Positions 2,562 to 39,754 of a DNA stretch of 41,454 nucleotides are shown one piece after another. A program made the position numbers and the translations under genes. The DNA is taken from positions 1 to 41,454 of the forward strand of contig JANNWY010000149.1 in assembly GCA_031409335.1 (NCBI GenBank), written 5' to 3'. Every line of letters starts with the position of its first letter. Positions within the stretch are counted from its first letter, which is position 1. Source of the DNA: Chthoniobacteraceae bacterium. Lineage in GTDB: Bacteria > Verrucomicrobiota > Verrucomicrobiia > Chthoniobacterales > Chthoniobacteraceae. The notes under the pieces were generated by a model that worked only from the letters and a program-made list of their open reading frames with translations, was not told the DNA's origin and did no database searches.

Positions 2562-3655
2562 TTCTTCCGGGTAGCACGCTCGTCCCGAGCGTTGGTTTCG
2601 GCGTCCCGCCGAGACGAACTTTCCTGTCGCATCGCTGCAAAGATCGTTCGCGAATCCAATGCCGACGACGCAGAAAAGTTCGTCTTGGCGGGACGAGCGT
2701 GCTACCCGGAACTCCGCGCGTCGCTCTTTTCACTTTGCTCGCATTGCTCGCACTCGTTGCCGGCTGCGGGCGTCCTCCCAGCGAACTCACCCCGCGCGAG
2801 TGGCACAATTTCCAGCTTCCACCCGACGGCCCGTCGCTGCCAACACCGCGCAGCGTCGCGACTGGAAATCGCGACGAACTGGCCGTGCTCGACACCGCGG
2901 GTCGCGTTCTCATTTACGATGCGAATGGCGCGCTGCTGCGGCATTGGCAGATGCTCGATGTCAGCGTCGGCAAGCCGGAAGGGATCGTCGTTTTGAAAGA
3001 CGGGCGCGTGGTGGTTTGCGACACGCATTATCATCGCATCGTCTATTTCGATGCGGAGGGAAATTGGCTGAAAAACTTCGGCCAGCGCGGCAAAGGGCCG
3101 CGTGAATTCGAGTATCCCGTCGGCATTTGCAAGGATGCCGCGGAGAATCTCTACATCTGCGAATACGGCGGCAACGACCGCGTGCAAAAGTTCACGCGCG
3201 AGGGCGAGTTCATTCTCGCGTTTGGCAGCTTCGGCACTGCGCCGGGCCAGTTCCAGCGACCATCGGGGCTCGCCTGGCACGATGGGAAAATCCACGTCGC
3301 CGACGCGATCAACCATCGCGTGCTCATCTTCACCGACGCGGGAAAACATCTTGGCCTGCTTGGCGAAGCGGAGCGCCCGCTCGCTTTCGAGTTTCCCTAC
3401 GACATCACGTTCGCGCCCGACGGAAATTTTTACGTGATCGAATACGGCGCGGGCCGGCTGTCGCGGATCGCGCCGGATGGCACGCTGCTCGGCCGCTGCG
3501 GACGCACGGGCAGCGGCGCGGGGGAATTTGCGACGCCGTGGGGGATCACGGTCGATTCGCAGATGCGCATCCGCGTCGCCGACACGAAAAACCGGCGCGT
3601 CGTCACCCTCAAACTTGAGGGAGATTCCAAATTCCAGGAGCCAAATTCCAAATAA
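2558..3655 (+). CDS. NHL-repeat beta-propeller lipoprotein, with an in-frame palindromic insertion in the N-terminus
   Basis: Repeated NHL units (KPEGIVV...VCDTHYHRI, YPVGIC...CEYGGNDRVQKF, RPSGLA...ADAINHRV, TPWGI...ADTKNRRV) and lipobox LVAG|C. ATG at 2558 overlaps the ATPase stop (ATGA). Confidence 0.8.
   Translation: MILPGSTLVPSVGFGVPPRRTFLSHRCKDRSRIQCRRRRKVRLGGTSVLPGTPRVALFTLLALLALVAGCGRPPSELTPREWHNFQLPPDGPSLPTPRSVATGNRDELAVLDTAGRVLIYDANGALLRHWQMLDVSVGKPEGIVVLKDGRVVVCDTHYHRIVYFDAEGNWLKNFGQRGKGPREFEYPVGICKDAAENLYICEYGGNDRVQKFTREGEFILAFGSFGTAPGQFQRPSGLAWHDGKIHVADAINHRVLIFTDAGKHLGLLGEAERPLAFEFPYDITFAPDGNFYVIEYGAGRLSRIAPDGTLLGRCGRTGSGAGEFATPWGITVDSQMRIRVADTKNRRVVTLKLEGDSKFQEPNSK
2565..2711. 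repeat. REP/REPIN- or MITE-like palindromic element, family A copy 1
   Basis: Perfect 23-bp terminal inverted repeats ttccgggtagcacgctcgtcccg / cgggacgagcgtgctacccggaa. A related copy lies at 24712-24880. Confidence 0.85.
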
Positions 3656-3783
3656 ATTTCAAAATCCAGATTTCAAATTTCAAACCTGACGCCGTGCGCG
3701 AATGGTCCTTCTGGTTTGAAATTGTGCGCCCTGCCGAAGTTTGAGATTTATTTGGAATTTGGTCCCTGGCCCGTGGAATCTCC
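3620..3783. repeat. Imperfect inverted repeat built of ccaaatt/ttccaaa-type short units between convergent genes
   Basis: Left arm ggagattccaaattccaggagccaaattccaaataaatttcaaa pairs with right arm tttgagatttatttggaatttggtccctggcccgtggaatctcc. Confidence 0.75.
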
Positions 3784-11757: not shown

Positions 11758-11961
11758 CACAGTCTGGTTGCGTGAATGGGGAACGCGGAGCGCCTTGGAC
11801 TGCGGCGGCAAGCGTCAGCGCGACACCGCTTTTGGAAGGTCTGCGGGTGGGTTCGAGGCGCGCGTCTCCCGCCCGAAAATCATCCGAAAGCGACGTGGCG
11901 CTGACGCTTCCCGCCGCAGTCCAAGGCACCGCGCGCTTCGCATTCGCGCAGCCAGACTGTG
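11758..11961. repeat. Nested inverted repeat (REPIN-like) upstream of the ATP-grasp gene
   Basis: Outer arms cacagtctggttgcgtgaatg / cattcgcgcagccagactgtg. Inner arms gccttggactgcggcggcaagcgtcagcgc... / ...gcgctgacgcttcccgccgcagtccaaggc. Confidence 0.8.
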
Positions 11962-22714: not shown

Positions 22715-24697
22715 ATGTCAGCTCCTGCTCCAACCAAGGAAACGCGCCGCTGGTTTCCACGCTTCACTTCCCGCGAAGTGGAAATCCACGACCACGATCA
22801 CGATCACGCCGACCACCACCACGAGGGCGAGTGGAAAACGCAGCTCATCGCCAGCGCCGTGTGCGCGGTGCTGGGTTTGCTCGCGGCGTATGCCGCCGGG
22901 CCGTCCGCGGCTCTGCCCTTTTTCCTCGCGGCGTATCTCGCGGGCGCTTGGTACACGGCGCAGGAGACTTGGGAAAAGCTACGCGAGGGCGAGATCGACG
23001 TGCATTTTCTCATGCTCGCTGTGGCAGTCGGCGCGGCGGCGATCGGGAAATGGGGCGAGGGCACGATGCTGCTGTTCCTGTTTTCCTTTTCCGGCGCGCT
23101 CGAGCATTTCGCGATGGAGCGCACGCAAAAGGAGATCAGCTCGCTGTTCGACTCCGCGCCGAAGACTGCGATCGTGCTGGATGAAAACGGTGTCGAACGC
23201 ATCGCGCCGGTGGATGAATTGACGACGGGCCTGCGGCTCTCGGTGAAGCCGGGCACGCTGTTCCCGGTCGATGGCGAAATCGTGAAAGGCGACACGACCG
23301 CCGATGAATCGAATCTGACTGGCGAAGCGACGCCGGTGGAGAAACAGCCGGGCGATTCCGTGCTCGCGGGCACGCTGAATCAGGGTGGGCTCGTGGAGGT
23401 AATCGTCTCGCGGCCGGCGCAGGAAAGCGCGCTGCAAAAAATCATCCGCCTCATCCAAAGTGCGCAGCGCAACAAAGCGCCCGCGCAACGTTTCACCGAC
23501 AAATTCGGCAGCCGCTACACCATCGCGATTCTCGTGCTGACGCTGGTGATGTTCTTCGTCTGGTGGCTCGCGATGAACCACGCGCCGTTCGTTTCCACTG
23601 CCACGGCGCCAAGCGCATTTTACCACGCGATGACGCTGCTCGTCGTCGCCTCGCCGTGCGCGCTCGTGCTCTCGATTCCGTCCGCGATCCTCGCGGCGAT
23701 CGCGTGGGGCGCGAAGCGCGGCATCCTCTTCCGCGGCGGTGCGGCAGTGGAGGAACTGGGCGAGATCCAACTCGTCGCGATGGATAAAACGGGCACGCTC
23801 ACGAGCGGCGATTTGCGGGTCGAGAAAGTGGAAAGCTTTCCTTCGGGGCAGGAGGAAAAAGTGTTGCGCCTCGCCTATTCGCTCGACCGCCATTCCACGC
23901 ATCCGCTCGCCCGCGCGATCGTGCGCCACGCAAAAAAGCGCGGCGTCGTGGCGGAGGAAACCACGGGCTTCGAGCAGACGCCGGGGATGGGAATCCGCGC
24001 GCACATTGGCACCGTGGAAGTGCGGCTCGGACGCCGCACCTGGTTGCAGGACAATGCGCGCGCGACTTGCGCCGCCGTGGTGATGCCCGAGCGGATCGGC
24101 GTTTCCGAAGTCTGGCTCGCGGCGGGCGATCTCTACGGGCGGGTGTTGCTGCGCGACGATGTGCGGCCCGAATCGCGCGGGCTGATCGAGGCGCTGCATG
24201 CGCGCGGCTTAAAAACGATGGTGCTCACTGGCGACCGCCAGAGCGCGGCGGATCATCTCCGAACCGAACTCGGCCTCGACGACGTGCGCGGTGAATTGAA
24301 GCCGGATCAAAAGCTCGCGATCATCGAAGGCCTCAGCAAAGACGGCATCAAAGCTGCGATGATCGGCGACGGCGTCAACGACGCCCCGAGTCTCGCTGCC
24401 GCGCATGTCGGCGTGGCGATGGGTGCGCGCGGCAGCGACGCCGCGCTGGAGCAGGCCGAGGTCGTGCTGATGAACGACCGCCTCGAAAACTTCCTCGCCG
24501 CCTACGAACTCAGCCGCCGCGCCCGCCGCATCATCCAGCAAAATCTCACGATCTCACTCGGCGTCATCGTCGTGCTGGTGGCCTGCGCGTTGTTTGAAAA
24601 AATCCCGCTGACCGTCGGCGTCTTTGGTCATGAAGGCAGCACGCTCGTCGTCGTGCTGAACAGCCTGCGGCTGCTTTTCATGAAACCGGGCAAGTGA
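22715..24697 (+). CDS. Heavy-metal P1B-type ATPase (SPC motif, P1B-4-like)
   Basis: His-rich N-terminus HDHDHDHADHHHE, TGE, SPC, DKTGT, HP, GDGVND and HEGST motifs. Confidence 0.92.
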   Translation: MSAPAPTKETRRWFPRFTSREVEIHDHDHDHADHHHEGEWKTQLIASAVCAVLGLLAAYAAGPSAALPFFLAAYLAGAWYTAQETWEKLREGEIDVHFLMLAVAVGAAAIGKWGEGTMLLFLFSFSGALEHFAMERTQKEISSLFDSAPKTAIVLDENGVERIAPVDELTTGLRLSVKPGTLFPVDGEIVKGDTTADESNLTGEATPVEKQPGDSVLAGTLNQGGLVEVIVSRPAQESALQKIIRLIQSAQRNKAPAQRFTDKFGSRYTIAILVLTLVMFFVWWLAMNHAPFVSTATAPSAFYHAMTLLVVASPCALVLSIPSAILAAIAWGAKRGILFRGGAAVEELGEIQLVAMDKTGTLTSGDLRVEKVESFPSGQEEKVLRLAYSLDRHSTHPLARAIVRHAKKRGVVAEETTGFEQTPGMGIRAHIGTVEVRLGRRTWLQDNARATCAAVVMPERIGVSEVWLAAGDLYGRVLLRDDVRPESRGLIEALHARGLKTMVLTGDRQSAADHLRTELGLDDVRGELKPDQKLAIIEGLSKDGIKAAMIGDGVNDAPSLAAAHVGVAMGARGSDAALEQAEVVLMNDRLENFLAAYELSRRARRIIQQNLTISLGVIVVLVACALFEKIPLTVGVFGHEGSTLVVVLNSLRLLFMKPGK

Positions 24698-24711
24698 TGC
24701 GCGTGGCTGCA

Positions 24712-24880
24712 ATTCCGGGTAGCACGCTCGTCCCGAGCGTTGGTCTTCGCGTCCCGCGGAGACGAACTTCCTTCACGCGCTGCCGCAGTTTTGTTCACAA
24801 AATCTGTTCCGACACTTTTGCAAAGTCCATTTCGGCGGGACGCCGAAACCAACGCTCGAGACGAGCGTGTTACCCGGAAT
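24712..24880. repeat. REP/REPIN- or MITE-like palindromic element, family A copy 2 (intergenic)
   Basis: attccgggtagcacgctcgtcccgagcgttgg ... ccaacgctcgagacgagcgtgttacccggaat; same termini as 2565-2711. Confidence 0.85.
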
Positions 24881-24898
24881 CCGCGGCGCGCGCGTAAC

Positions 24899-25465
24899 AT
24901 GAAACTCTTCCACGCCGCCGACATTCACCTCGGTCGCCGTCGCCTGGATGGCCGGCTTCCCGACTCGGATTTCGCCGATGCTTTCGAGCACATCGCCCGC
25001 GCTGCGATTGAGGGGAAGGCCGATGTCTTCCTCCTCGCGGGTGATCTTTTTGACCGCGCGCAAGTCGAGCCGCCGCACCTTCGCCAGGCGCAGGCGACCT
25101 TGGAGCGTCTGCGCGCAGCGGGCATTCCGGTTATCCCGATCGAGGGAAATCACGACAAAGCATCGCTGCATTTCAGCGAAGCGACGTGGCTCGATTTTCT
25201 CGCGGACGACGGCCTGCTTCGCCTGCTGAAGCCGCGGTTCGATGCGAGCGGCGCGATTCTCGACGGTGCGATTTGCGACCTCGGCGGCGTGCGTTTTGTC
25301 GGCGCGGGTTATCTCGGCGCGGCGACTCCGGCGAAGGTACGGCAGATTCTCGAACGGCTCGAAGCGGGGCGCGATCATGTGCTGCTGCTGCACGCGGGCC
25401 CGGATTATTTTGTCGTCGAAGGCGGGGGATTTACGGCGGAGGATTTACGCGGCGTTCGCGAGAGC
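24899..25465 (+). pseudogene. sbcD: SbcD/Mre11-family metallophosphoesterase, 3'-truncated
   Basis: ADIHLG, AGDLFD and GNHD motifs. Family-like sequence ends near 25465, before the GHxH motif, and the ORF runs on into unrelated sequence. The end coordinate is approximate. Confidence 0.7.
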
Positions 25466-29976: not shown

Positions 29977-30696
29977 ATGATTCAGTCAGCGGATCAAGCT
30001 CCAGCCAAAGACTCAATGCGTGTCCTCCTTGCCGAAGATGAAAAGAAGATCGCCCTGCATATTCGCGCGGCTTTGCGTGAGCAGGGTTTCACCGTCGATC
30101 TCGTTCATCGTGGCGATGAGGCGCTGGAAGCCGCGCTGCGCACGCCTTACGACGCGCTCGTGCTCGATGTGATGATGCCGGGCCGCGACGGTTTAAGCAT
30201 CCTCCGCATCCTGCGGGAAAAGCGCGTGGCCACTCCGGTGTTGATCGTGACGGCGCGCGGCGAAGTCTCTGAGCGCGTCGAGGGGCTGATGCTCGGGGCG
30301 GACGATTATCTTTCAAAGCCGTTTGCGATGAATGAGCTGGTCGCGCGCGTCGTCGCGCTGACCCGCCGCGGCAGCAGCCAGGGCCTCACGCTTTTGCAGG
30401 TCGAGGATCTTACGATGAATCTCACCACGCGCGAGGTGCGGCGCGCGGGGCAGAAGATCGAGCTGCCCCTGCGCGAATTCGCGCTCCCCGAGTATCGCCT
30501 GCGTTCGCCGTGGCGCATGCTTTCAAAAACTCAGCTCATCGAAAACGTGTGGGAGTGGCACTTCGATACCGGCACGAATGTCGTCGAGGTTTACCTCCAG
30601 CGCCTTCGCAGAAAGGTGGACGATGGCCACTGCGGAATGGCTGGCGGGGCGATGAAACGCAATTCCGCCTTTCGTGCATCATCGGTCGCGGGATAG
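29977..30696 (+). pseudogene. OmpR-family response regulator, decayed and 3'-truncated duplicate of 39044-39754
   Basis: Near-identical protein to the second copy up to KVDDGH (nt 30630), then unrelated sequence. It lacks the C-terminal IHTVRSVGY wing and has non-conservative changes (LPEYRLRSPWRM vs LLEYLMRSPGRV). Alternative start at 30016. Confidence 0.75.
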
Positions 30697-30704
30697 CCTC
30701 CCCC

Positions 30705-31289
30705 ATGCTCAAAAGCGCAGCCCATCTCGACCGCATCCTCGCCGCCCTCGGCAGCCTCCAGTATTACCTGAAGCTCAACTCCGCGCAGGGCTTCATCTCC
30801 CCCGCCGCGCACCTTGAGGACTTCTGCATCCCGCTGCTCGACGCGGTGTACGGATACAGCCTCACCAACGCCAACGCCGCCAAATCCAACACCCCGGCCA
30901 TTGACCTCATTGATGACAATGAGCGGCTCGGCATCCAAGTCACCATCAACGACAAGGCCACAAAGATCAGCGATACCTACAAGACAGCCGCAGACCTGAA
31001 GCACAACCTCGGCGCGGAGATCGGCAAGCTGCTCATTTTCTTCTTTACCGCCAAAGCACCCAAGACTCCCGCCGGCGTCAAAGCAGTTCCCGGCATCACC
31101 ATCGAACTGCTCGACCTCACCGACCTCATCACCGAAATCCGCAGCTTCCCGCCGGAGAAGCAGGAGCAAATCGCCGCGCTGCTCGACCACGAACTATCCT
31201 CGGGGCCGTCGGCAAGATACATCATCAACGCGACGAACGTGACGGTGATTCCCGGACGCATCGAGACGCTCACCATCCACAACCACTGA
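30705..31289 (+). CDS. Stand-alone SMEK-like domain protein (predicted restriction-endonuclease-like defence effector) with a short C-terminal beta-prone tail
   Basis: Pattern EDFCIPLLDAVYGYSLTNAN....NTPAIDLID....GIQVT......KI..T recognised by eye as SMEK-like. No HMM was run. Confidence 0.65.
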   Translation: MLKSAAHLDRILAALGSLQYYLKLNSAQGFISPAAHLEDFCIPLLDAVYGYSLTNANAAKSNTPAIDLIDDNERLGIQVTINDKATKISDTYKTAADLKHNLGAEIGKLLIFFFTAKAPKTPAGVKAVPGITIELLDLTDLITEIRSFPPEKQEQIAALLDHELSSGPSARYIINATNVTVIPGRIETLTIHNH

Positions 31290-31348
31290 AAAATAGCCGT
31301 GGGTGAGGAACGAGCCCACGGAACTGACCCGAGCGGGAAGCGCCCAGT

Positions 31349-31481
31349 GTAGGCGAGATTTGCAATCTCGCTTCGTTGGCACACGAGATTTGCAATCTCG
31401 CTTGGCAGGCGTCGTTCTCACCGAAAACGTGCAGGATTCCGAACTGCCGCATCGCCAAGCGAGATTGCAAATCTCGCCTAC
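31349..31481. repeat. GTAG-type REP cluster (three palindromic units, the last inverted)
   Basis: gtaggcgagatttgcaatctcgctt (31349), cgagatttgcaatctcgcttggc (31384) and gccaagcgagattgcaaatctcgcctac (31454-31481). Confidence 0.8.
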
Positions 31482-31592
31482 GTTATGCCCGCTTGCGCGG
31501 GCGATCCTGCCGCTTGCACCACGTTCGACAAACCGCATTTTCCCCGCAGGCTTGCGAAGCCGCCCACCGCCCGCGATACACAGCCGCAGCCC

Positions 31593-34085
31593 ATGGCATC
31601 CAAACGCGCAAAGAGCATCCAGATCATCGAGCAGGCAGGCTCCGTCACCATCGTCAATGGCGCGGGCAAGACGGGCAACCTCAGCCCTTACCTCCAGCGT
31701 GTCACAAATGATTGCGAGCGTATCGAGCTGGAGCAGTTCGGCAGCCTTGTTCCCAAGAGCGTCAAACTCATCCCACTCGCGAAAGTCTATGTCTCGCTCG
31801 ACACTCAGGAGTGGGAGCGCGAGGAAGTGGATGAACCGCAAAAGCAACAGCCGCGCGAGTTGCTCCCTGCGCTCGATGTTCTCGGGCGCGAGCCGCGTCT
31901 GGTCATCCTCGGCGACCCCGGCTCGGGGAAATCCACCTTTTTCCGCTACGTCGCCCACTGCCTCGCTTGCGCACGCTTGGGGAATGAAGAGGCGAGCGTG
32001 AAGAAGTGGCCTGCGTCCCTGCACAAGTGCCTCCCATTTTCCGTCGAGTTGAAATGGTTCGCTGACTGGATGGCGAAAAAGAACATCAAGCGGGCGGACG
32101 AAAGCCACCTGTGGGAATACCTCAAGACCGAGGTGCTCAAGAGCTACGAGGACGCATGGGAGCCGCTTGGCGATGTGCTCAATGACCGCACCTTCGCGGG
32201 CCGCATCGTCTTTTTCCTCGATGGGCTGGACGAAGTGTATAGCGACGACCACCGCGAGCTCGTCATCGGCGCCATCAATGAATTCTCCAAGAGCGGACGC
32301 GGGGCCTGCCGCATTGCCGTGACGTGTCGCGAGGCCACCTACGCCCAAACGGAATGGCGACTTGATGCCAAATTTCACGTCACCCGGCTCGCCAGCCTCT
32401 CGGACGGCACCGAGTCCCAGCGCAAGTCCAACCAAGTGCAGGAGTTCGTCGAAGCATGGTTCTCCGTCATCGGGCAGCCCGCTTTGGCGAAGGAAATCCT
32501 CGCTTCTTTTGGCAAGCAGCCCCGCCTGCGGGAACTCGCGTGCAATCCGATGAACCTCACCAATATCGTCCTCCTCCGCGCCGGGGGCACGCCGCTGCCC
32601 GAAAACCGCGCCGAGCTATGGAGAGCCGTCATCCACCAGCTCCTCTTCCAGCGCGACCGTGCAAAGGACAAAGCCCACCTCAAGAGCCCGCTCGATGCCG
32701 TGCTCGACCGGCTGCACTGTAGCGAGGCGGATTTGCACCACTCGCTCGGCAGGATGTTTTTCGATGCGCACCAGCATCACCCGCCGGATGCCCCGCCTAC
32801 CATGCTCTCGCGCAGCGCGCTTCACGAGATGGCCAAGCGCCTGCGCGACGATACACCGTGGGCGGATGAGCTGGTGGAGAATTTCACCCAGCGCCCCGGC
32901 CTTCTCCGCAGCCGCGCGCGGGACCGATATTGCTGCCCGCACCTCAGCTTTCAGGAATGGCTCGCCGCGTGGCACCTCGCCGGGCAGCCCCGCTGTGTGG
33001 ACGAAATGTCCCGGCTGCTTGGCACGACGGAGTTTCGGCAGCAGTGGCGCGAAGTCGCAAAGTGGCTTGCCGAGCAGTGGGTGCATATTTTGGGAAGACC
33101 GGACCTCGTGCTCGCTCTCGCAAAGGCGCTCTGCAATGGCGACCCGGCGGCGATGTCCCCTTGCGACATCGCCCGCGCAAAGCTCGCCTCCGAGATTCTC
33201 GGCGAGCTGGGGAAGGAGAAAATCGCGGCGCGTCCGCTGGGTTGCGAGTTGCTTGCAGCGGTCCGCCCGGTGCTTGCTTCGCTGCTCACCACGGAGCGGC
33301 TGGAGGCTCGCGACCGCGCCGCTGCGGGCATGGTGCTCGGGCAGCTTGGCGACCTGCGCGAGGGCGTCGGCTGCGGCGAAAAGGGCGTGCCCGTTTTCAA
33401 ATGGAGCGCGGAGTTTCCAGCGGGCGACTTCACCCTCGGCGAGGGCAAAAAGAAGCGCCGCATCCTCGACGCCTACCGCATGAGTATTTACCCCGTCACC
33501 GTCCAGCAGTTCGCCGCTTTTCTCGCGGCGGGCTATCGCGAGGCCGGGCCGAAGGACTACGAGCAGGCGGAGTTTCAGACGCCGAACCATCCCCGCGTCG
33601 GCGTCTCGTGGTACGAGGCTACCGCGTTTTGCGCGTGGGTCTCCGCACAAACGAAGAACGCAATCCGCCTGCCCACCGAGGCTGAGTGGGAGCGGGCGGC
33701 GGCGGGTGATGGGAAAAAGGGGCGTGAGTTTGCGTGGAGCGATGCGAAGGACGACGGGCTTTCCATACGCTGCAATATGGGCGGCACTGGCATCGGGCAC
33801 CCGTCGGCGGTGGGCATATTCCCCACGGGCAACACGCCCGAGGGCATCGCCGATATGACGGGCAATGTGTGGGAGTGGTGCGCCAGCCGTTACAACGACG
33901 ACTCCGAAGATGCCAGCAAGCCGGTCGCCGAAATTAAGAGCGACCAGTCCGGCGTGGTTCGTGGCGGGTCGTGGGGCTACGGCTATCCCGACTATCTCCG
34001 CGCTTCGTTTCGCACCTTCTATCCTCCCGGCTACCGTTACGACTTTATCGGTTTTCGGGTGGTGGTGGTGGGTGCGGCGTGCTAG
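31593..34085 (+). CDS. DGR target 1: NACHT/STAND NTPase + FGE-sulfatase (CLec-fold) protein
   Basis: Walker A GDPGSGKST, Walker B FFLDGLDEV, VTCR, NPMNL and HLSFQEWLAA. C-terminal PRVGVSWYEA, RLPTEAEWE, DMTGNVWEW, RGGSW and GFRV. ATG 31593 preferred over 31485. Confidence 0.92.
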   Translation: MASKRAKSIQIIEQAGSVTIVNGAGKTGNLSPYLQRVTNDCERIELEQFGSLVPKSVKLIPLAKVYVSLDTQEWEREEVDEPQKQQPRELLPALDVLGREPRLVILGDPGSGKSTFFRYVAHCLACARLGNEEASVKKWPASLHKCLPFSVELKWFADWMAKKNIKRADESHLWEYLKTEVLKSYEDAWEPLGDVLNDRTFAGRIVFFLDGLDEVYSDDHRELVIGAINEFSKSGRGACRIAVTCREATYAQTEWRLDAKFHVTRLASLSDGTESQRKSNQVQEFVEAWFSVIGQPALAKEILASFGKQPRLRELACNPMNLTNIVLLRAGGTPLPENRAELWRAVIHQLLFQRDRAKDKAHLKSPLDAVLDRLHCSEADLHHSLGRMFFDAHQHHPPDAPPTMLSRSALHEMAKRLRDDTPWADELVENFTQRPGLLRSRARDRYCCPHLSFQEWLAAWHLAGQPRCVDEMSRLLGTTEFRQQWREVAKWLAEQWVHILGRPDLVLALAKALCNGDPAAMSPCDIARAKLASEILGELGKEKIAARPLGCELLAAVRPVLASLLTTERLEARDRAAAGMVLGQLGDLREGVGCGEKGVPVFKWSAEFPAGDFTLGEGKKKRRILDAYRMSIYPVTVQQFAAFLAAGYREAGPKDYEQAEFQTPNHPRVGVSWYEATAFCAWVSAQTKNAIRLPTEAEWERAAAGDGKKGREFAWSDAKDDGLSIRCNMGGTGIGHPSAVGIFPTGNTPEGIADMTGNVWEWCASRYNDDSEDASKPVAEIKSDQSGVVRGGSWGYGYPDYLRASFRTFYPPGYRYDFIGFRVVVVGAAC
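33948..34079 (+). repeat. DGR variable region VR1
   Basis: 132-nt match to TR (35820-35951, minus strand) with 17 substitutions, all at TR adenines. Confidence 0.97.
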
Positions 34086-34194
34086 CGCTGGGTGTCTTTT
34101 TATCCTTTGTTCCTTTTACACTCTTACCCTTTTAGAAAGGGCGTGGCTTGGCGAATGGCATGGAAAGCAGCCTGCGCAGCTGGAAAATTTTTTG
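34086..34194 (+). promoter_or_regulatory. Conserved post-VR element 1 (candidate IMH-adjacent target-recognition sequence with hairpin)
   Basis: ~110 nt shared with 36012-36122 (minus), including a 37-nt identical core and hairpin cccttt-tag-aaaggg (34127-34141). Absent downstream of TR. Confidence 0.7.
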
Positions 34195-34212
34195 CGGAAA
34201 AAAACGACTGTT

Positions 34213-35211
34213 CTACCCGCTGGAATACACCTTTCGCAGCCCCTCGGTGTTCCCTTCTTTGCTGAATTGGTACCATGCAAAGACCGTCTGCGTCACCCGC
34301 TGGTAGTCGCGGGCAAGCACCAGCCTGTGCTTGCGCTGCTCAAAGCGCCGCTTCGTCGCCCCGAGCACGCGGGGGCGCAACCCAGGCAGAAAGCGGAAGC
34401 CGCAAAACGGCACACCTTCCCTCGTTGCGAGCAGCCGCGATTTTGGCTCCGCCAAAAGCAGATGCACTTTCGCCAATTCTGCGACGACGGCGTGTTTCAG
34501 CGCCCCGAGCGCCGCACGGTCGTCGGCAAAGATGAGGAAATCATCCGTGTACCGCACCATCGCGCCACACTGCCACTGCTCGGTGATGATGTGGTCCAGC
34601 CCATCGAGGTAAAGATTTCCCCAAAGCTGTGAGGTGAGATTGCCGATGGGCAGGCCGCATGGCCGCGCCGCGCCTTCCGTGCGGTAGCTGGAGATGATCC
34701 TCCCGAGCAGCCCACGCACCGCGGGGCAGCGCACCTTTGGCGCCAGCAGCCCGAGCAGCGTCTCGTGGTCGATGCTGGGGAAGAACTTCCGCACATCGCA
34801 TTTCAGCACGAAGCGATACTGGTTCACCAGCTTGCGGCAGCATTCGCGGGCGGCAGTCGTGCCCTTGCCGAGCTGGCAGGAAAAGCTGCGCGCGATGAAC
34901 TGCCGCTCCATCACCGGGGCGAGGAGATTGCAGAGGGCGTGATGCACCACGCGGTCGCGAAACGGCGCAGCGGCGATCATCCGGCGCTTGGGCTCCCGAA
35001 TCTCGAAGAAATGATACGGCCCCGGTCGGTAGCTGCCGGAGCGCAGTTCCTCGCGCAGGGCGGCCAGCTCCGTCTCCCGGCGCATCCACCACGCCTCCAC
35101 ATCCGGGCGGCGGCGTTTGCCCCGGCGGGCCTTGTCGGCGGCGGTGAAAAGGTTTTCCCACGAAGCGACGGCTTCCATCGTGCAGATACGGGATTGCTGG
35201 CGTGGTGTCAT
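34213..35211 (-). CDS. DGR-type reverse transcriptase
   Basis: WENL..A...ARRGK, EPKRR.I.AAPFRDRVVHHAL, LKCDVRKFFPSIDH, GLPIGNLTSQ (DGR-type SQ), RYTDD and FCGFR. Alternative starts at 35178 and 35256. Confidence 0.96.
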   Translation of the reverse strand: MTPRQQSRICTMEAVASWENLFTAADKARRGKRRRPDVEAWWMRRETELAALREELRSGSYRPGPYHFFEIREPKRRMIAAAPFRDRVVHHALCNLLAPVMERQFIARSFSCQLGKGTTAARECCRKLVNQYRFVLKCDVRKFFPSIDHETLLGLLAPKVRCPAVRGLLGRIISSYRTEGAARPCGLPIGNLTSQLWGNLYLDGLDHIITEQWQCGAMVRYTDDFLIFADDRAALGALKHAVVAELAKVHLLLAEPKSRLLATREGVPFCGFRFLPGLRPRVLGATKRRFEQRKHRLVLARDYQRVTQTVFAWYQFSKEGNTEGLRKVYSSG

Positions 35212-35231
35212 CGGGCTGCTTGTGTGTGCAG

Positions 35232-35582
35232 ATGCCACTACCGGAACATCCGCCACTTTACACCGCCCTTTGCGACCTCATCGCTTGGACGCTCCAGCGC
35301 ACCGCCAGCATCCCCAAGAGCCACCGCTTCACCTTTGGCCAGCGCATCGAGAATCTCTCGCTCGATGCGCTCATGCTCTGCATCCGCGCGACCTACGCTG
35401 CGCGGGGGAAAAAGGCGGCGTTTCTGGATGAACTGAATCTTTTTCTGGAGCAGCTGCGCGTGCTCTGGCGGCTCGTCCACGGGCAGGCTTGGGTGAGCCA
35501 GCAGCAGCTCGTCTTCATCATCGGAAAGATCGACGAGGCCGGGCGGATGACGGGCGGCTGGCTGCGGCAGCTATCGAAGTGA
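35232..35582 (+). CDS. avd: DGR accessory variability determinant (Avd, four-helix bundle)
   Basis: 116-aa helical protein with PKSHRFTFGQRI, LEQLRVLWRL and GRMTGGW, adjacent to RT and TR. Confidence 0.9.
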   Translation: MPLPEHPPLYTALCDLIAWTLQRTASIPKSHRFTFGQRIENLSLDALMLCIRATYAARGKKAAFLDELNLFLEQLRVLWRLVHGQAWVSQQQLVFIIGKIDEAGRMTGGWLRQLSK

Positions 35583-36007
35583 AAAAGTTGCAGGCGGTGG
35601 CTTTCATCGCCGCCCGGAGGCGGCACTACCGGCCACGGCCTGCGCCGCGTATTTTCCCCGCGTCTTTGCGGCACTCGCGGCACCACCCTTTCATCCTTCC
35701 GGGCTGGCGCGGGGCGTGGCAGGTGGGGTTAGGCTGGGCATCTTGGCACGGGCCGCGCAGAGCGTCCGCCCCACGCGGCATCTCGCCGGTTTCTGTTTTA
35801 GCATTTGCGCCGCCTTGCGCGCCGCACCCACCACCACCACCCGAAAACCGATATTGTTGTTACGGTTGCCGGGATGATTGTTGTTGCGATACGAAGCGCG
35901 GAGATTGTCGGGATTGTTGTTGCCCCACGACCCGCCACGAACCACGCCGGTGCGGCCCCATCCGCTCACTTCCAGCCGGCATCCCCCGAAAGGAACACCG
36001 ACCGAAA
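35583..36007 (-). ncRNA. Predicted DGR template RNA (5' hairpin + TR + structured spacer)
   Basis: Minus-strand-specific 17-bp UUCG hairpin just before TR, further hairpins after TR, and a closing stem plus U-run near 35583. Boundaries are inferred. Confidence 0.6.
35820..35951 (-). repeat. DGR template repeat (TR)
   Basis: acc ggc gtg gtt cgt ggc ggg tcg tgg ggc aac aac aat ccc gac aat ... aac aac aat atc ggt ttt cgg gtg...: an AAC/AAT-rich copy of both VRs with 27 adenines. Confidence 0.97.
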
Positions 36008-36011
36008 TCTT

Positions 36012-36122
36012 CAAAAAAATTTCCCTGCTGCGCAGACTGCTTTCCATGCCATTTGCAAAGCCACGCCCTTTCTAAAAGGGTAAGAGTGTAAAAGAACTAA
36101 AGGGTAAACAAGACACCCAGCA
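36012..36122 (-). promoter_or_regulatory. Conserved post-VR element 2
   Basis: Inverted copy of 34086-34194; hairpin at 36066-36080. Confidence 0.7.
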
Positions 36123-38655
36123 CTAGCACGCCGCACCCACCACCACCACCCGAAAACCGAAATCGACGACACGGTTGCCGGGAAGACCGTCGAAGCGACA
36201 CGAAGCGCGGAAGATTGACGGGAGAGCTGAGGCCCCACGACCCGCCACGAACCACGCCGGCCTTGTCGCTCTCGGGGTTCTCATCCGGCTGGTAGTCGCG
36301 GTAGTTGTCGGTCCAGCGCGTGGAGCACCACTCCCACACATTGCCCGCCATGTCCTCCGCGCCACACTCCGCTTTCCCAGCGGGGAAGAGCCCGACTGCG
36401 GAGGTGTGGCCGATGCCGACTTCATGCCAGTTTGCCTGGTCCTTGAGGGCTGCCTTGCCCCACGGATATTCCCGCGCATCGGTATGCCGGGCGGCGCGTT
36501 CCCACTGCGGCTCGCTGGGCAGAGCGATGCGGTCACTATCGCGCAAGCCGAGGGCGACGCGCTGCGTGTGCAGCCATGCGGCAAAGGCAGTGGCCTCGTA
36601 CCACGAGACGCCGACGCGGGGATGGTTCGGCGTCTGGAAAATGCGGTCGAATCGCTCCGGGCCGGTGATGCGTTCCGCGCGCAGCCAGCGCCAGCCCGCC
36701 TTCGTCCACAGCGCCTCAGCCTCATACCCGCCCGCCGCCATAAACGCGGCATATTGCTCCACGGTGATGGGGTATCGCGAAATGCGGTAGTCCTCGCGGA
36801 TGTCGAAAAGGATGCGCGGTTTTTCATCGTCGTAGGGGGCCGTGTCATTGCCCATCGGGAACTTTCCGGCAGCGACTTTGCACCACTCGATGGCCGGCAG
36901 CTCCAGTTTGGCGACGGTGGTGCAGCCCACGCCCGGACGGTCGTCGCCGAGGATGCCGATGCCAGCGGCGGCTAGGGCGCGCTGCTTCGCCGGGGCGGCG
37001 CTGTCGCGGATGCCGAGCAGCTTGGTGCGCAAGTCGGCGATGGTGCGCTTGGAAGTGGGGACATCTTCATCATCCCAAGTGGCGATGCGGGCATCGCGGG
37101 CAATCTCCGCAGCGAGCAGGTCGTCTCCTTTCGCCATGAGCGCGGCGATGAGGGCGAGTACGTGGTGCTGCATATTCTTCCGCGCATGGGCCTGCACGCC
37201 CGCCGCCCAGAGCACTGTCTTGCGGGCGTAGTCGCCCTGCTTTTCCAGCGTCTCGATGACGCGCTTGGGGAAAGTTTTCCCCTCCGCGAGCGCATCGTTC
37301 GTGAGGTGGCATCCGGCGAGAAATTCCTCGAAGCGGTAGTGAAACTCCAGCGCCTCGCTATCGCGGGATTGCAGGATGCCCGCGCGGTCGCGCAGCGCGG
37401 CGATGAGGGCGGCGCGGTCGTCGTCCGTCCACTTCGGGTCGAGGCGCAGGCGGTTTTCCAAGAGGTCTATATCGACGGGGAGCGACTTGCCGCCCTCGCG
37501 CTCCACGGTGGCGGTGCGCTCGCGGTGGAGGAAGGCGATCGTCTCCAGCCGGGAGCGGAGTTTCGCCGGGTCCGCGGCGATGGGGCGGGGCTGGGTGGGG
37601 TCGTCGGCTTTTCGCGAATCGCGGAGGATGCCATCCACGAGCTGGTCCATGAGCGCGGCCCCGGTATCCGGCAGGGGCTTTTCCAGCCGGTGAAGCTGGG
37701 CCATGACGGTGAGGAAAAAAGGATTGCCCGCCATGTCCTGCAAATCCTCGGAGGCGCGGATGGCTTTGCGCAGGGTGCGCTCGCATTGCTCCTGTTCGGC
37801 GTCGGTTTTCAGGAAGCCGCAGTCTTTGGATTCTTGGTACCAAGCCGCAATGAATCGCTGCTGGAGCGCATCCGAAAGAGGGATGAGCTGGTGCGGGTCG
37901 GGGAAGCCGGGAATGGGCATCCCGGTCTGCTCGTACGAGGCGATGCGGCAGGTGACGACGATGCGGGACTTTGCAAAGCCGCCCGTGGCAAACGAGCGGA
38001 TAGCCTCGCGGATGACGGGGAGGCGGAGTTGAGGGACTTCATCGAGGCCATCGAAAAAGACCACGGCGGCCCCGCGCTGGAGCAAGTCTTCGAGGTGCTG
38101 CTCGGCGGCGGTGTGGCAGGCTTTGGCGAGTTGCGCCTTGAGCCATGCGAGGACTTCCGCCGCCGTGCCTTTTGCCTCCGGCGCAAGGTCGCGCTCGAAG
38201 TGGCGGAGGACGATGCGAAAGGGCACCGGGCCTTTTTCCTCCCCCGCCAGCCGCAGCGCGACGTGCTGGACGAAGGTGCTCTTCCCCGAGCCAGGCTCGC
38301 CGGTGAAGACGGCCTTCTTTGCGTCCGGGAGAAAGAGCGCGTCCCACGCGGAGAGCGCGCGGCTTCCCACCTCCTTGCCCTTGTCGCCCGGCAGGTGGCT
38401 GCTCGTCTCCAGCGCGACATACACGACATCCAGCCCCGGCGCCCGCTGCCCGCGCTCCGCCGCGATGTTCAAGCCGACGACGTTCACGTTCTTGCACTGC
38501 TCGGCGAGCGACTTGCAGTAGCCCGCAAAGACGGCGCGCAACGCTTCATCGGAAGGCGGCAAGGTGGGCACGGTGCCGTAGTAGTGGTTGTGCTGCGTGC
38601 CGACCCGCTCGTTGATCTGCACGTTCTTGCCGGTGGCTTTGGGTTGCGATTTCAT
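36123..38655 (-). CDS. DGR target 2: NACHT/STAND NTPase + FGE-sulfatase (CLec-fold) protein, frameshifted inside VR2 as sequenced
   Basis: GEPGSGKST, FFDGLDEV, VTCR, GNPFFL and FEEFLAG; CLec motifs PRVGVSWYEA, LPSEPQWE, DMAGNVWEW and RGGSW. The proper ending [11 protein letters not shown] (36123) is in another frame, so as written the ORF runs to 36097. Confidence 0.88.
36129..36261 (-). repeat. DGR variable region VR2
   Basis: Matches TR with 20 substitutions, all at TR adenines, plus one extra T (aatcttccgc vs aatctccgc; position 36211/36212). Confidence 0.96.
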
Positions 38656-39043
38656 GGGCTCGGCGGGAGCGTGACACCAACCGCGCGGAGAGGGCAAACA
38701 CTTCACCCCGGAGCCGAAATGCGACAGCGCGAATCCTCCTCCTCGTCCTCGTCGCAGGAGCAGTAGGTTCACGGAGTTGAGAGTCGTCATTCATGGTGAT
38801 GAGGAAAGCGGAAGCCGTTTGGCATTACTTTTTGGCGCAGGCGAGGAGGGTCATCCGCTCGCAATTCAACTCGGCGACCGGCATGACCATCGGGTGCCCT
38901 TTGCGCGGCGTGTTTGGGAATTGCGGGCCGGGACCGGCGAAGAGACTGGTCTTTTCCCTACGCGCAGGCGGTCGAAGAAAATAACTGCGCAGTAAGCATC
39001 GCACCACCGTTCGCGTTATCAGCGTCGCCCTATTTATCCACCC

Positions 39044-39754
39044 ATGATTCCATCCGTATCCGAGATACACTCCGAATCCATGCGCGTCCTCCTCGCCGAA
39101 GATGAAAAGAAGATCGCCCTGCACATCCGCGCGGCTTTGCGCGAGCAGGGCTTCGCCGTGGACATGGTGCATCGCGGCGACGAGGCGCTGGAAGCCGCGT
39201 CGCAGACGCCGTACGATGCCATCGTTCTCGATGTGATGATGCCGGGCCGCGACGGCTTGAGCATCCTCCGCGTCCTGCGGGAAAAGCGCGTGGCCACGCC
39301 GGTGCTCATCGTGACGGCACGCGGCGAAGTCTCCGAGCGGGTCGAGGGGTTGATGCTCGGCGCGGACGATTATCTCGCGAAGCCATTCGCGATGAATGAG
39401 CTGGTCGCCCGCGTCGTCGCGCTGACCCGGCGCGGGAGCAGCCAGGGATTGACTCTCCTGCGCGTGGCGGATTTGACGATGAATCTCATCACCCGCGAAG
39501 TGCGGCGCGGCGCGGAAAAGATCGAACTGCCGCTGCGCGAATTCGCGCTGCTCGAATATCTGATGCGTTCGCCAGGGCGCGTGCTTTCCAAGACGCAGCT
39601 CATCGAAAACGTGTGGGAGTGGCACTTCGACACCGGCTCGAATGTGGTCGAAGTCTATATCAAGCGGCTGCGCAACAAGGTGGACGATGGCCACGCGGTG
39701 AAGCTCATCCACACCGTGCGCAGCGTCGGCTACGTGCTGAGAAAGGACGAATGA
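39044..39754 (+). CDS. OmpR-family two-component response regulator (intact copy)
   Basis: LLAEDE, LDVMMPG, GADDYLAKPF, LREFALLEYL, NVVEVYIKRLR and IHTVRSVGY motifs. Alternative start at 39080. Confidence 0.93.
   Translation: MIPSVSEIHSESMRVLLAEDEKKIALHIRAALREQGFAVDMVHRGDEALEAASQTPYDAIVLDVMMPGRDGLSILRVLREKRVATPVLIVTARGEVSERVEGLMLGADDYLAKPFAMNELVARVVALTRRGSSQGLTLLRVADLTMNLITREVRRGAEKIELPLREFALLEYLMRSPGRVLSKTQLIENVWEWHFDTGSNVVEVYIKRLRNKVDDGHAVKLIHTVRSVGYVLRKDE

Follow-up and report, generated by a model that had tools for sequence, protein, structure and literature searches.

The window analysed here is a stretch of 41,454 nucleotides from a Chthoniobacteraceae bacterium of the Verrucomicrobiota (NCBI GenBank assembly GCA_031409335.1, contig JANNWY010000149.1, positions 1 to 41,454 of the forward strand). 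It carries what is, judged by sequence, almost certainly a diversity-generating retroelement (DGR) with a template repeat (TR), a reverse transcriptase (RT), the accessory protein Avd and two variable repeats (VR1 and VR2). The variable repeats lie in two genes for NACHT-type STAND NTPases, target 1 and target 2, and a gene for a SMEK-domain protein is found upstream. By comparison of the chains, a family-level tag of ~20 amino acid residues is common to the sensors and the SMEK tails, and in relatives it changes with the partner tail. We lean towards the view that the diversified, NLR-like NACHT proteins are invader sensors which would switch on the SMEK protein, a likely nuclease, through these amyloid-like tags, killing the infected cell. 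The features concerned are:

30705..31289, (+) strand: gene for a SMEK-domain protein of 194 aa, predicted to be an Mrr-like nuclease and ending in a beta-rich tag of ~23 aa
31593..34085, (+) strand: target 1, 830 aa, intact; tag, NACHT-type STAND NTPase, FGE-sulfatase/C-type-lectin domain (Pfam)
33949..34085, (+) strand: VR1, 18 differences from TR, 17 at adenines
35814..35950, (-) strand: TR, 137 nt, 28 adenines
36123..36260, (-) strand: VR2, 21 differences from TR, 20 at adenines, and one additional T at 36211/36212
36097..38655, (-) strand: target 2, 852 aa as encoded; tag, NACHT-type NTPase, C-type-lectin domain (Pfam)

The differences between the variable repeats and the TR are concentrated at adenines, with 17/18 changes at A in VR1 over 137 nt and 20/21 in VR2 (hypergeometric p = 1.7e-13 and 1.2e-16, respectively). 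The remaining change is in both repeats a C>T at TR position 132. A previous sequence-only reading of this DNA had placed all substitutions on TR adenines, which is correct for the 17 and 20 but not for the extra C>T in each repeat. It had also counted 27 adenines in the TR, while the recount gives 28, of which 26 belong to the core and 2 to the terminal AAG. One A change in each variable repeat, AAG>TAG, is fixed and creates the stop codon. With this change excluded, 16/26 of the mutagenised core adenines are altered in VR1 and 19/26 in VR2. Both repeats are changed at 11 positions and have the same base at 3 of these; they carry different outcomes, as had been claimed. The 26 core adenines are located at codon position 1 (12) or position 2 (14); a stop codon cannot be reached from them, and ~10^15.3 peptides are possible. 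In both targets the variable repeat is found at the end of a C-type-lectin fold (PF03781). The sequence-only reading had described a complete DGR with past activity, in which one TR diversifies two genes by adenine-specific mutagenic retrohoming. This description agrees with the pattern of changes and with the presence of TR, RT, Avd, VR1 and VR2, and its repeat positions and its TR, VR1 and VR2 peptides were reproduced. Remote variable repeats, for which it had suggested a search with the TR, were not found by BLAST of the whole genome (98% complete), which gave VR1 and VR2 alone. The next matches, C87 (63%), C176 (68%) and C108 (70%), have mismatches at non-adenines and were rejected as variable repeats.

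The syntenic locus of a relative, L010 (a 100% match to G530 and counted once), has an RT 92% identical to that of the window and a target 2 which is 82% identical and in frame in its VR2. The difference between TR and variable repeats at the 3' end had been taken as the IMH*/IMH pair (IMH, initiation of mutagenic homing). The AAG/TAG part of this difference is conserved in L010, but the C/T part is not: at site 132 the L010 TR has T, like the L010 variable repeats, and the site was rejected as an IMH mark. It is one of two non-adenine differences between the two TRs, the other being at site 86. At site 86 both variable repeats of L010 carry the base of the L010 TR, and both variable repeats of the window carry the base of the window TR. 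Apart from the TR-variant sites, the orthologous variable repeats differ at adenines alone, at 17 and 20 sites; over the 300 nt upstream of VR2 the identity is 85%. Since the site-86 bases track each locus's own TR and the other differences are adenine-only, VR1 and VR2 appear to have been rewritten, in each lineage from the TR of that lineage, after the window and L010 split. Simple gene conversion might account for site 86, but it would leave the adenines unscrambled. Population variation was judged from contigs alone. A contig of run X1, possibly the source sample, is identical to both variable repeats, the extra T included. A contig of X2 is identical to VR1; most of VR2 is not covered in X2 or X3. 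In X4, from another study, VR1 has other letters at two TR-adenine sites, 34032 and 34041 (among the 40/242 matches listed).

The two targets, whose start codons were inferred, are 26% identical outside the lectin domain. In target 1 the N-terminal tag spans residues ~5-24, the Walker A and Walker B motifs are GDPGSGKS and FLDGLDE, and the lectin domain is C-terminal. The Walker motifs are intact and no membrane stretch is present in either protein. Together with the NACHT and C-type-lectin domains of both, this is in line with the previous assignment to cytoplasmic STAND NTPases. No N-terminal effector domain was found in target 1 or target 2, in which the P-loop starts at residues 107 and 119, respectively. 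The extra T of VR2 shifts the frame of target 2 and converts its last 24 residues into an out-of-frame tail. The Logan contig of X1 spans this T without a gap, which makes an assembly error unlikely, although X1, as the possible source sample, is not independent. The T is located two to three bases from AAT and outside any AAC run, and slippage of the RT is its likely origin. Frameshifted variable repeats were seen in 5/117 TR-VR pairs from 160 fetched loci and are reported for 11/372 DGRs (PMC5758913).

The product of the SMEK gene matches PF21941 (E 6e-26), NF033859 and the PADLOC profile Aga_REase (E 9e-26). The SMEK profile also matches a solved Mrr domain, 26bh_D, from the Kordia short-Argonaute effector (E 3.5e-15). 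The protein is likely a nuclease, as judged from these profiles, and is a candidate effector of the sensors. Seven close homologs, 63-75% identical, have a common domain and exchangeable tails of three types. The SMEK gene is linked to sensors in 3/3 genomes holding the close SMEK type, and in L171 it is fused to NB-ARC, the all-in-one arrangement to be expected of an effector. SMEK was not found in viral contigs. In the sequence-only reading the upstream SMEK gene and the common tags had been overlooked; its account of the DGR and of the targets holds.

The likeness of the tags is seen when SMEK tails are compared with the N-termini of all 5,456 open reading frames (ORFs) of the genome. With the tails of the homologs P0002, P0003 and P0004 target 1 ranks first each time, and target 2 ranks third, 44th and second, respectively. 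Matches are given below as the number of N-termini of genome ORFs reaching the score (out of 5454) and then the number of shuffled tails reaching it (out of 5000). The SMEK tail of a further genome, G519, matches its own target-2 orthologue at 0/5454 and 2/5000. In L010, where there is a 4-nt overlap between the genes for SMEK and sensor 1, the SMEK tail has an extra last motif which matches its own, different sensor 1 at 1/5454 and 0/5000. This sensor 1 is 27% identical to target 1 before the lectin domain and 68% within it, and has a different tag. In the DGR locus L046 the tail of a cyclase-like gene matches the adjacent NACHT-lectin DGR target at 0/5454 and 0/5000. Against the sensors of other loci, scores of only 16-28 were obtained for the last motif of L010 and the tail of L046. 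The Q/N/G/V/I fraction of the tags is 0.48-0.73 in 10/10 motifs, as compared with 0.27 in the background. At a threshold of our own choosing, a Q/N/G/V/I-rich window is found in 35/59 short-N-terminus NACHT homologs and in 251/5,456 genome ORFs.

A second type of SMEK tail is found in P0005-P0007, where target-2-type N-termini matched weakly (11-109 of 5454). In 42 viral loci and one plasmid locus no other NACHT-lectin gene was found that has both a short N-terminus and a tagged neighbour; the plasmid gene has a long N-terminal region which is TIR-like by eye. No additional tagged pair was seen by eye among 80 metagenome RT loci.

By analogy with known families, the variable lectin site would bind an invader molecule, and binding of this ligand would cause the NACHT domains to oligomerise. 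As in HET-S/NWD2 and Bab/Agp, the N-terminal tags, once clustered, would then act as a template for a cross-beta fold of the SMEK tail. The SMEK domains, clustered in turn, would cut DNA, leading to cell death. The frameshifted VR2 would be overwritten by a new round of retrohoming. More tentatively, the locus may represent an adaptive-type immune module, uniting two mechanisms known until now only separately, DGR hypermutation of NLR sensor tips and prion-like amyloid signalling to a separate effector, here the predicted SMEK nuclease. The effector tail would in that case be a plug board, which gains a tag when the sensor chassis is swapped.

It is important to weigh the observations that do not favor activation of SMEK through amyloid-like tags. 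The SMEK tail of the window has a proline and a one-residue insertion as compared with its homologs, and it scores 24 with both of its own sensors, which is at chance level (195/5454; 263 and 685 of 5000). The first motif of L010 matches its own target 2 weakly (42/5454; 303/5000), and the likeness between the tags of target 1 and target 2 is modest (138/5454). The strong pairs are few. Because the window, L010 and G519 share ancestry as one ancestral cassette, the independent tag evidence comes to about two events plus one inherited match. Beta-rich N-termini as common as those noted above (35/59) fit a general role or a mere linker alike. The gap between the SMEK gene and target 1 is 303 nt, with a palindromic repeat in between (31349-31481, with one related copy on contig C169), while most pairs of the bacterial amyloid signalling (BASS) type (Dyrka et al., 10.1101/2020.01.06.895854) lie within 10 bp. 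In the contigs of X1 (both variable repeats) and X2 (VR1 only) no variants of the variable repeats were found. The coupling between sensor and SMEK may be weak or lost in the window strain because its SMEK tag has drifted.

The tags might couple sensor and SMEK in a non-amyloid manner, by beta-strand addition or a short beta-helix, or they might be leftovers of a split SMEK-NACHT fusion in an ordinary defence locus of the clade-5D type. A SMEK-STAND fusion does exist (L171), many NACHT-lectin homologs (35/59) have a beta-rich stretch at the N-terminus, and the amyloid proposal is drawn from sequence and not from structure. However, one fission would hardly explain a tail with tandem motifs, the last of which matches another sensor chassis with a NACHT region 27% identical, and the length, composition and polarity of the tags fit BASS (10.1101/2020.01.06.895854). 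We regard this explanation as unlikely. It is also improbable, to a similar degree, that the cassette was built as proposed above but is decaying in the window strain, with a formerly active DGR, a broken target 2 and an unpaired SMEK tag. The extra T in VR2, the drifted SMEK tail and the X1 and X2 contigs without variants are what decay would produce, and in the G519 copy no TR or close RT was found and the NACHT region has a frameshift. The RT, Avd, TR, target 1 and SMEK are nevertheless intact, frameshifted variable repeats are a normal by-product of DGRs at the frequencies given above (PMC5758913), and rare variants are dropped by contigs. The least credible possibility, to which we assign very little weight, is that the diversified NTPases have a regulatory or signalling role outside defence and that SMEK is a chance neighbour. 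According to PMC10907252, experimental tests of DGR-diversified STAND-lectin proteins are lacking, and PADLOC gave no real match for the targets. Such a role is at odds with the linkage of SMEK to sensors in every genome with the close SMEK type (3/3) and with the matching tags.

The remaining elements of the DGR are:

34213..35211, (-) strand: DGR reverse transcriptase, 332 aa, D138 and YTDD intact
35232..35582, (+) strand: accessory gene avd (116 aa), on the strand opposite to RT and TR; PF22296, NF033474
34086..34193, (+) strand: element 3' of VR1, common to VR2 and absent after TR; 6-bp hairpin
36014..36122, (-) strand: element 3' of VR2, a copy of the post-VR1 element by sequence match
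35583..35813, (-) strand: non-coding stretch 3' of TR, well conserved in the L010 alignment

The catalytic residues D138 and YTDD are invariant in 6/6 aligned RTs; a catalytically dead RT, which the sequence-only reading had named as an argument against current activity, is not what the chain indicates. The best solved relative is 8ub7 (328-aa RT with YMDD, E 2.3e-43), which we take to be the BPP-1 enzyme, and the next is a group II intron RT (6.6e-20). Avd exceeds the cut-off of PF22296 (56 bits; cut-off 40) and narrowly misses that of NF033474 (76.4 bits; cut-off 80). The avd gene is antisense to the RT in 55/84 fetched loci whose RT is at least 55% identical, some of these loci being duplicates, and the arrangement, being common, was rejected as a novelty. 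In the genome of the window (98% complete) no second Avd and no second close RT were found, the sole RT match being 29% identical and located on C32. The 108-nt element 34086..34193 is 91% identical to 36014-36121, is not found in full anywhere else in the genome and contains an AT-rich hairpin; it is a candidate cis-acting homing element. The stretch 35583..35813 is likely part of the template RNA. No Rfam match was found within 30000-39100, a promoter scan gave 0 sites, and the terminators were no better than chance.

The cassette is sporadic. A target-2 query at E 1e-55 matches 3/151 genomes of the family, in two genera, and 1/401 genomes of the phylum, this one being the genome of the window. 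The cassette was not found in four other genomes of the same genus (71-90% complete). In G519 the SMEK gene stays linked to the target-2 orthologue; the locus lacks target 1 and the DGR core, and neither a TR nor a close RT was found in the genome (92% complete). The orphan target-2 orthologue of G519 (L183 12494-16748) is convergent with SMEK, is frameshifted in the NACHT region and has a variable repeat with several non-adenine differences. The more distant DGR at L046 4091-13307 has two NACHT-lectin targets. One of them begins like the cyclase-like gene by eye, and the other is preceded by the stand-alone, guanylate-cyclase-like gene which shares its tag; fused and split forms would here sit side by side. 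Among L010-L169, DGRs of the Verrucomicrobiota type diversify many other lectin-fold fusions, whose N-termini are by eye kinase-, caspase- or TIR/SIR2-like or secreted, and at least 2 variable repeats are present in 16/100 loci having a TR-VR pair.

Two copies of a response-regulator gene, 85% identical, flank the cassette at 30009-30634 and 39073-39697. The left copy lacks the normal C-terminus, and the right copy is whole and is followed by a histidine kinase. These copies may mark how the cassette was inserted. Intergenic palindromic repeats of the REP or MITE type are located at 2565-2639, 3620-3783, 11758-11961 and 24691-24901. Elsewhere in the same genome (G000) a large immune-type gene with an N-terminal SMEK fusion (C212 59832-62729) and a large NACHT-like immune-type gene (C52 20306-23275) were noted, both with a C-terminus that is repeat-like by eye.

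Most loci of cellular DGRs with such targets have no obvious output. The locus described here offers a candidate output, a predicted nuclease of 194 aa, and a putative coupling tag of 20 residues, of which relatives provide natural variants, both matched and mismatched. Because both are named, the antigen-sensor hypothesis becomes testable without a known ligand. If the proposed signalling is true, a nuclease joins the effectors controlled by amyloid signalling, and the tags would explain many 'uncharacterised N-terminal extensions' of DGR-diversified NACHT-lectin proteins.

The layout of one TR and two cytoplasmic targets, each with a central NACHT/STAND module and a C-terminal variable lectin fold, is like that of the clade-5D cellular DGRs, likened here by layout and not by an RT tree. 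These have two STAND-CLec targets, for example in Thiohalocapsa PB-PSB1 DGR 3 and 6, and the targets have been proposed as antigen sensors (Doré et al. 2024, PMC10907252). In the text and 9 supplements of that paper SMEK is absent and 'amyloid' occurs in a reference alone. The STAND NTPase-FGS conflict systems (Kaur et al. 2021, PMC8195603) are likewise built of NTPase-FGS sensors associated with DGRs, with an effector recruited by a domain common to sensor and effector. However, the common parts in those systems are folded EAD or death-like domains. SMEK, amyloid, BASS and RHIM are absent as whole words from 12 of the 13 supplements of that study. The two-target NACHT-C-type-lectin layout is therefore already known (PMC10907252, PMC8195603), and what is added here is the proposed pairing of DGR sensors with SMEK by tags of the BASS type. 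Literature searches, in which subscription papers were thinly covered, gave no paper that links DGRs to amyloids.

As a DGR, the locus resembles that of Bordetella phage BPP-1 in its RT, Avd, TR, variable repeat at the C-type-lectin end of the target and A-to-N changes (PMC5758913). It differs in being cellular, in having two targets on opposite strands which flank the core, in an avd antisense to the RT and in the lack of a clear GC-rich hairpin. The SMEK domain is homologous to the SMEK/Mrr-APAZ effector of the Kordia jejudonensis short Argonaute (PDB 26bh), reported to be a weak collateral nuclease (PMC10810196, PMC12205087), but in the window the domain is free-standing and carries a short tag in place of APAZ. 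The closest parallel to the tags is found in BASS1-10 (10.1101/2020.01.06.895854), in which a Q/N/G/V/I-rich motif of ~25 aa is present at the C-terminus of the effector and the N-terminus of the NLR, encoded by adjacent collinear genes. The main text of Dyrka et al. contains no FGE, sulfatase, retroelement, SMEK or Verrucomicrobia, and the supplementary motif tables may hold such pairs. BASS sensors carry TPR or WD repeats, unlike those described here, and their effectors are given as Bell, TIR2, CHAT, hydrolase and cyclase. A BASS11 pair, Bab/Agp, protects against phage (10.1101/2024.11.07.622273). Tandem motifs occur on BASS effectors as well, and the guanylate cyclase among these may be compared with the L046 gene. 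The SMEK gene (30705-31289) and target 1 (starting at 31593) are adjacent and collinear, with the same polarity as in BASS pairs.

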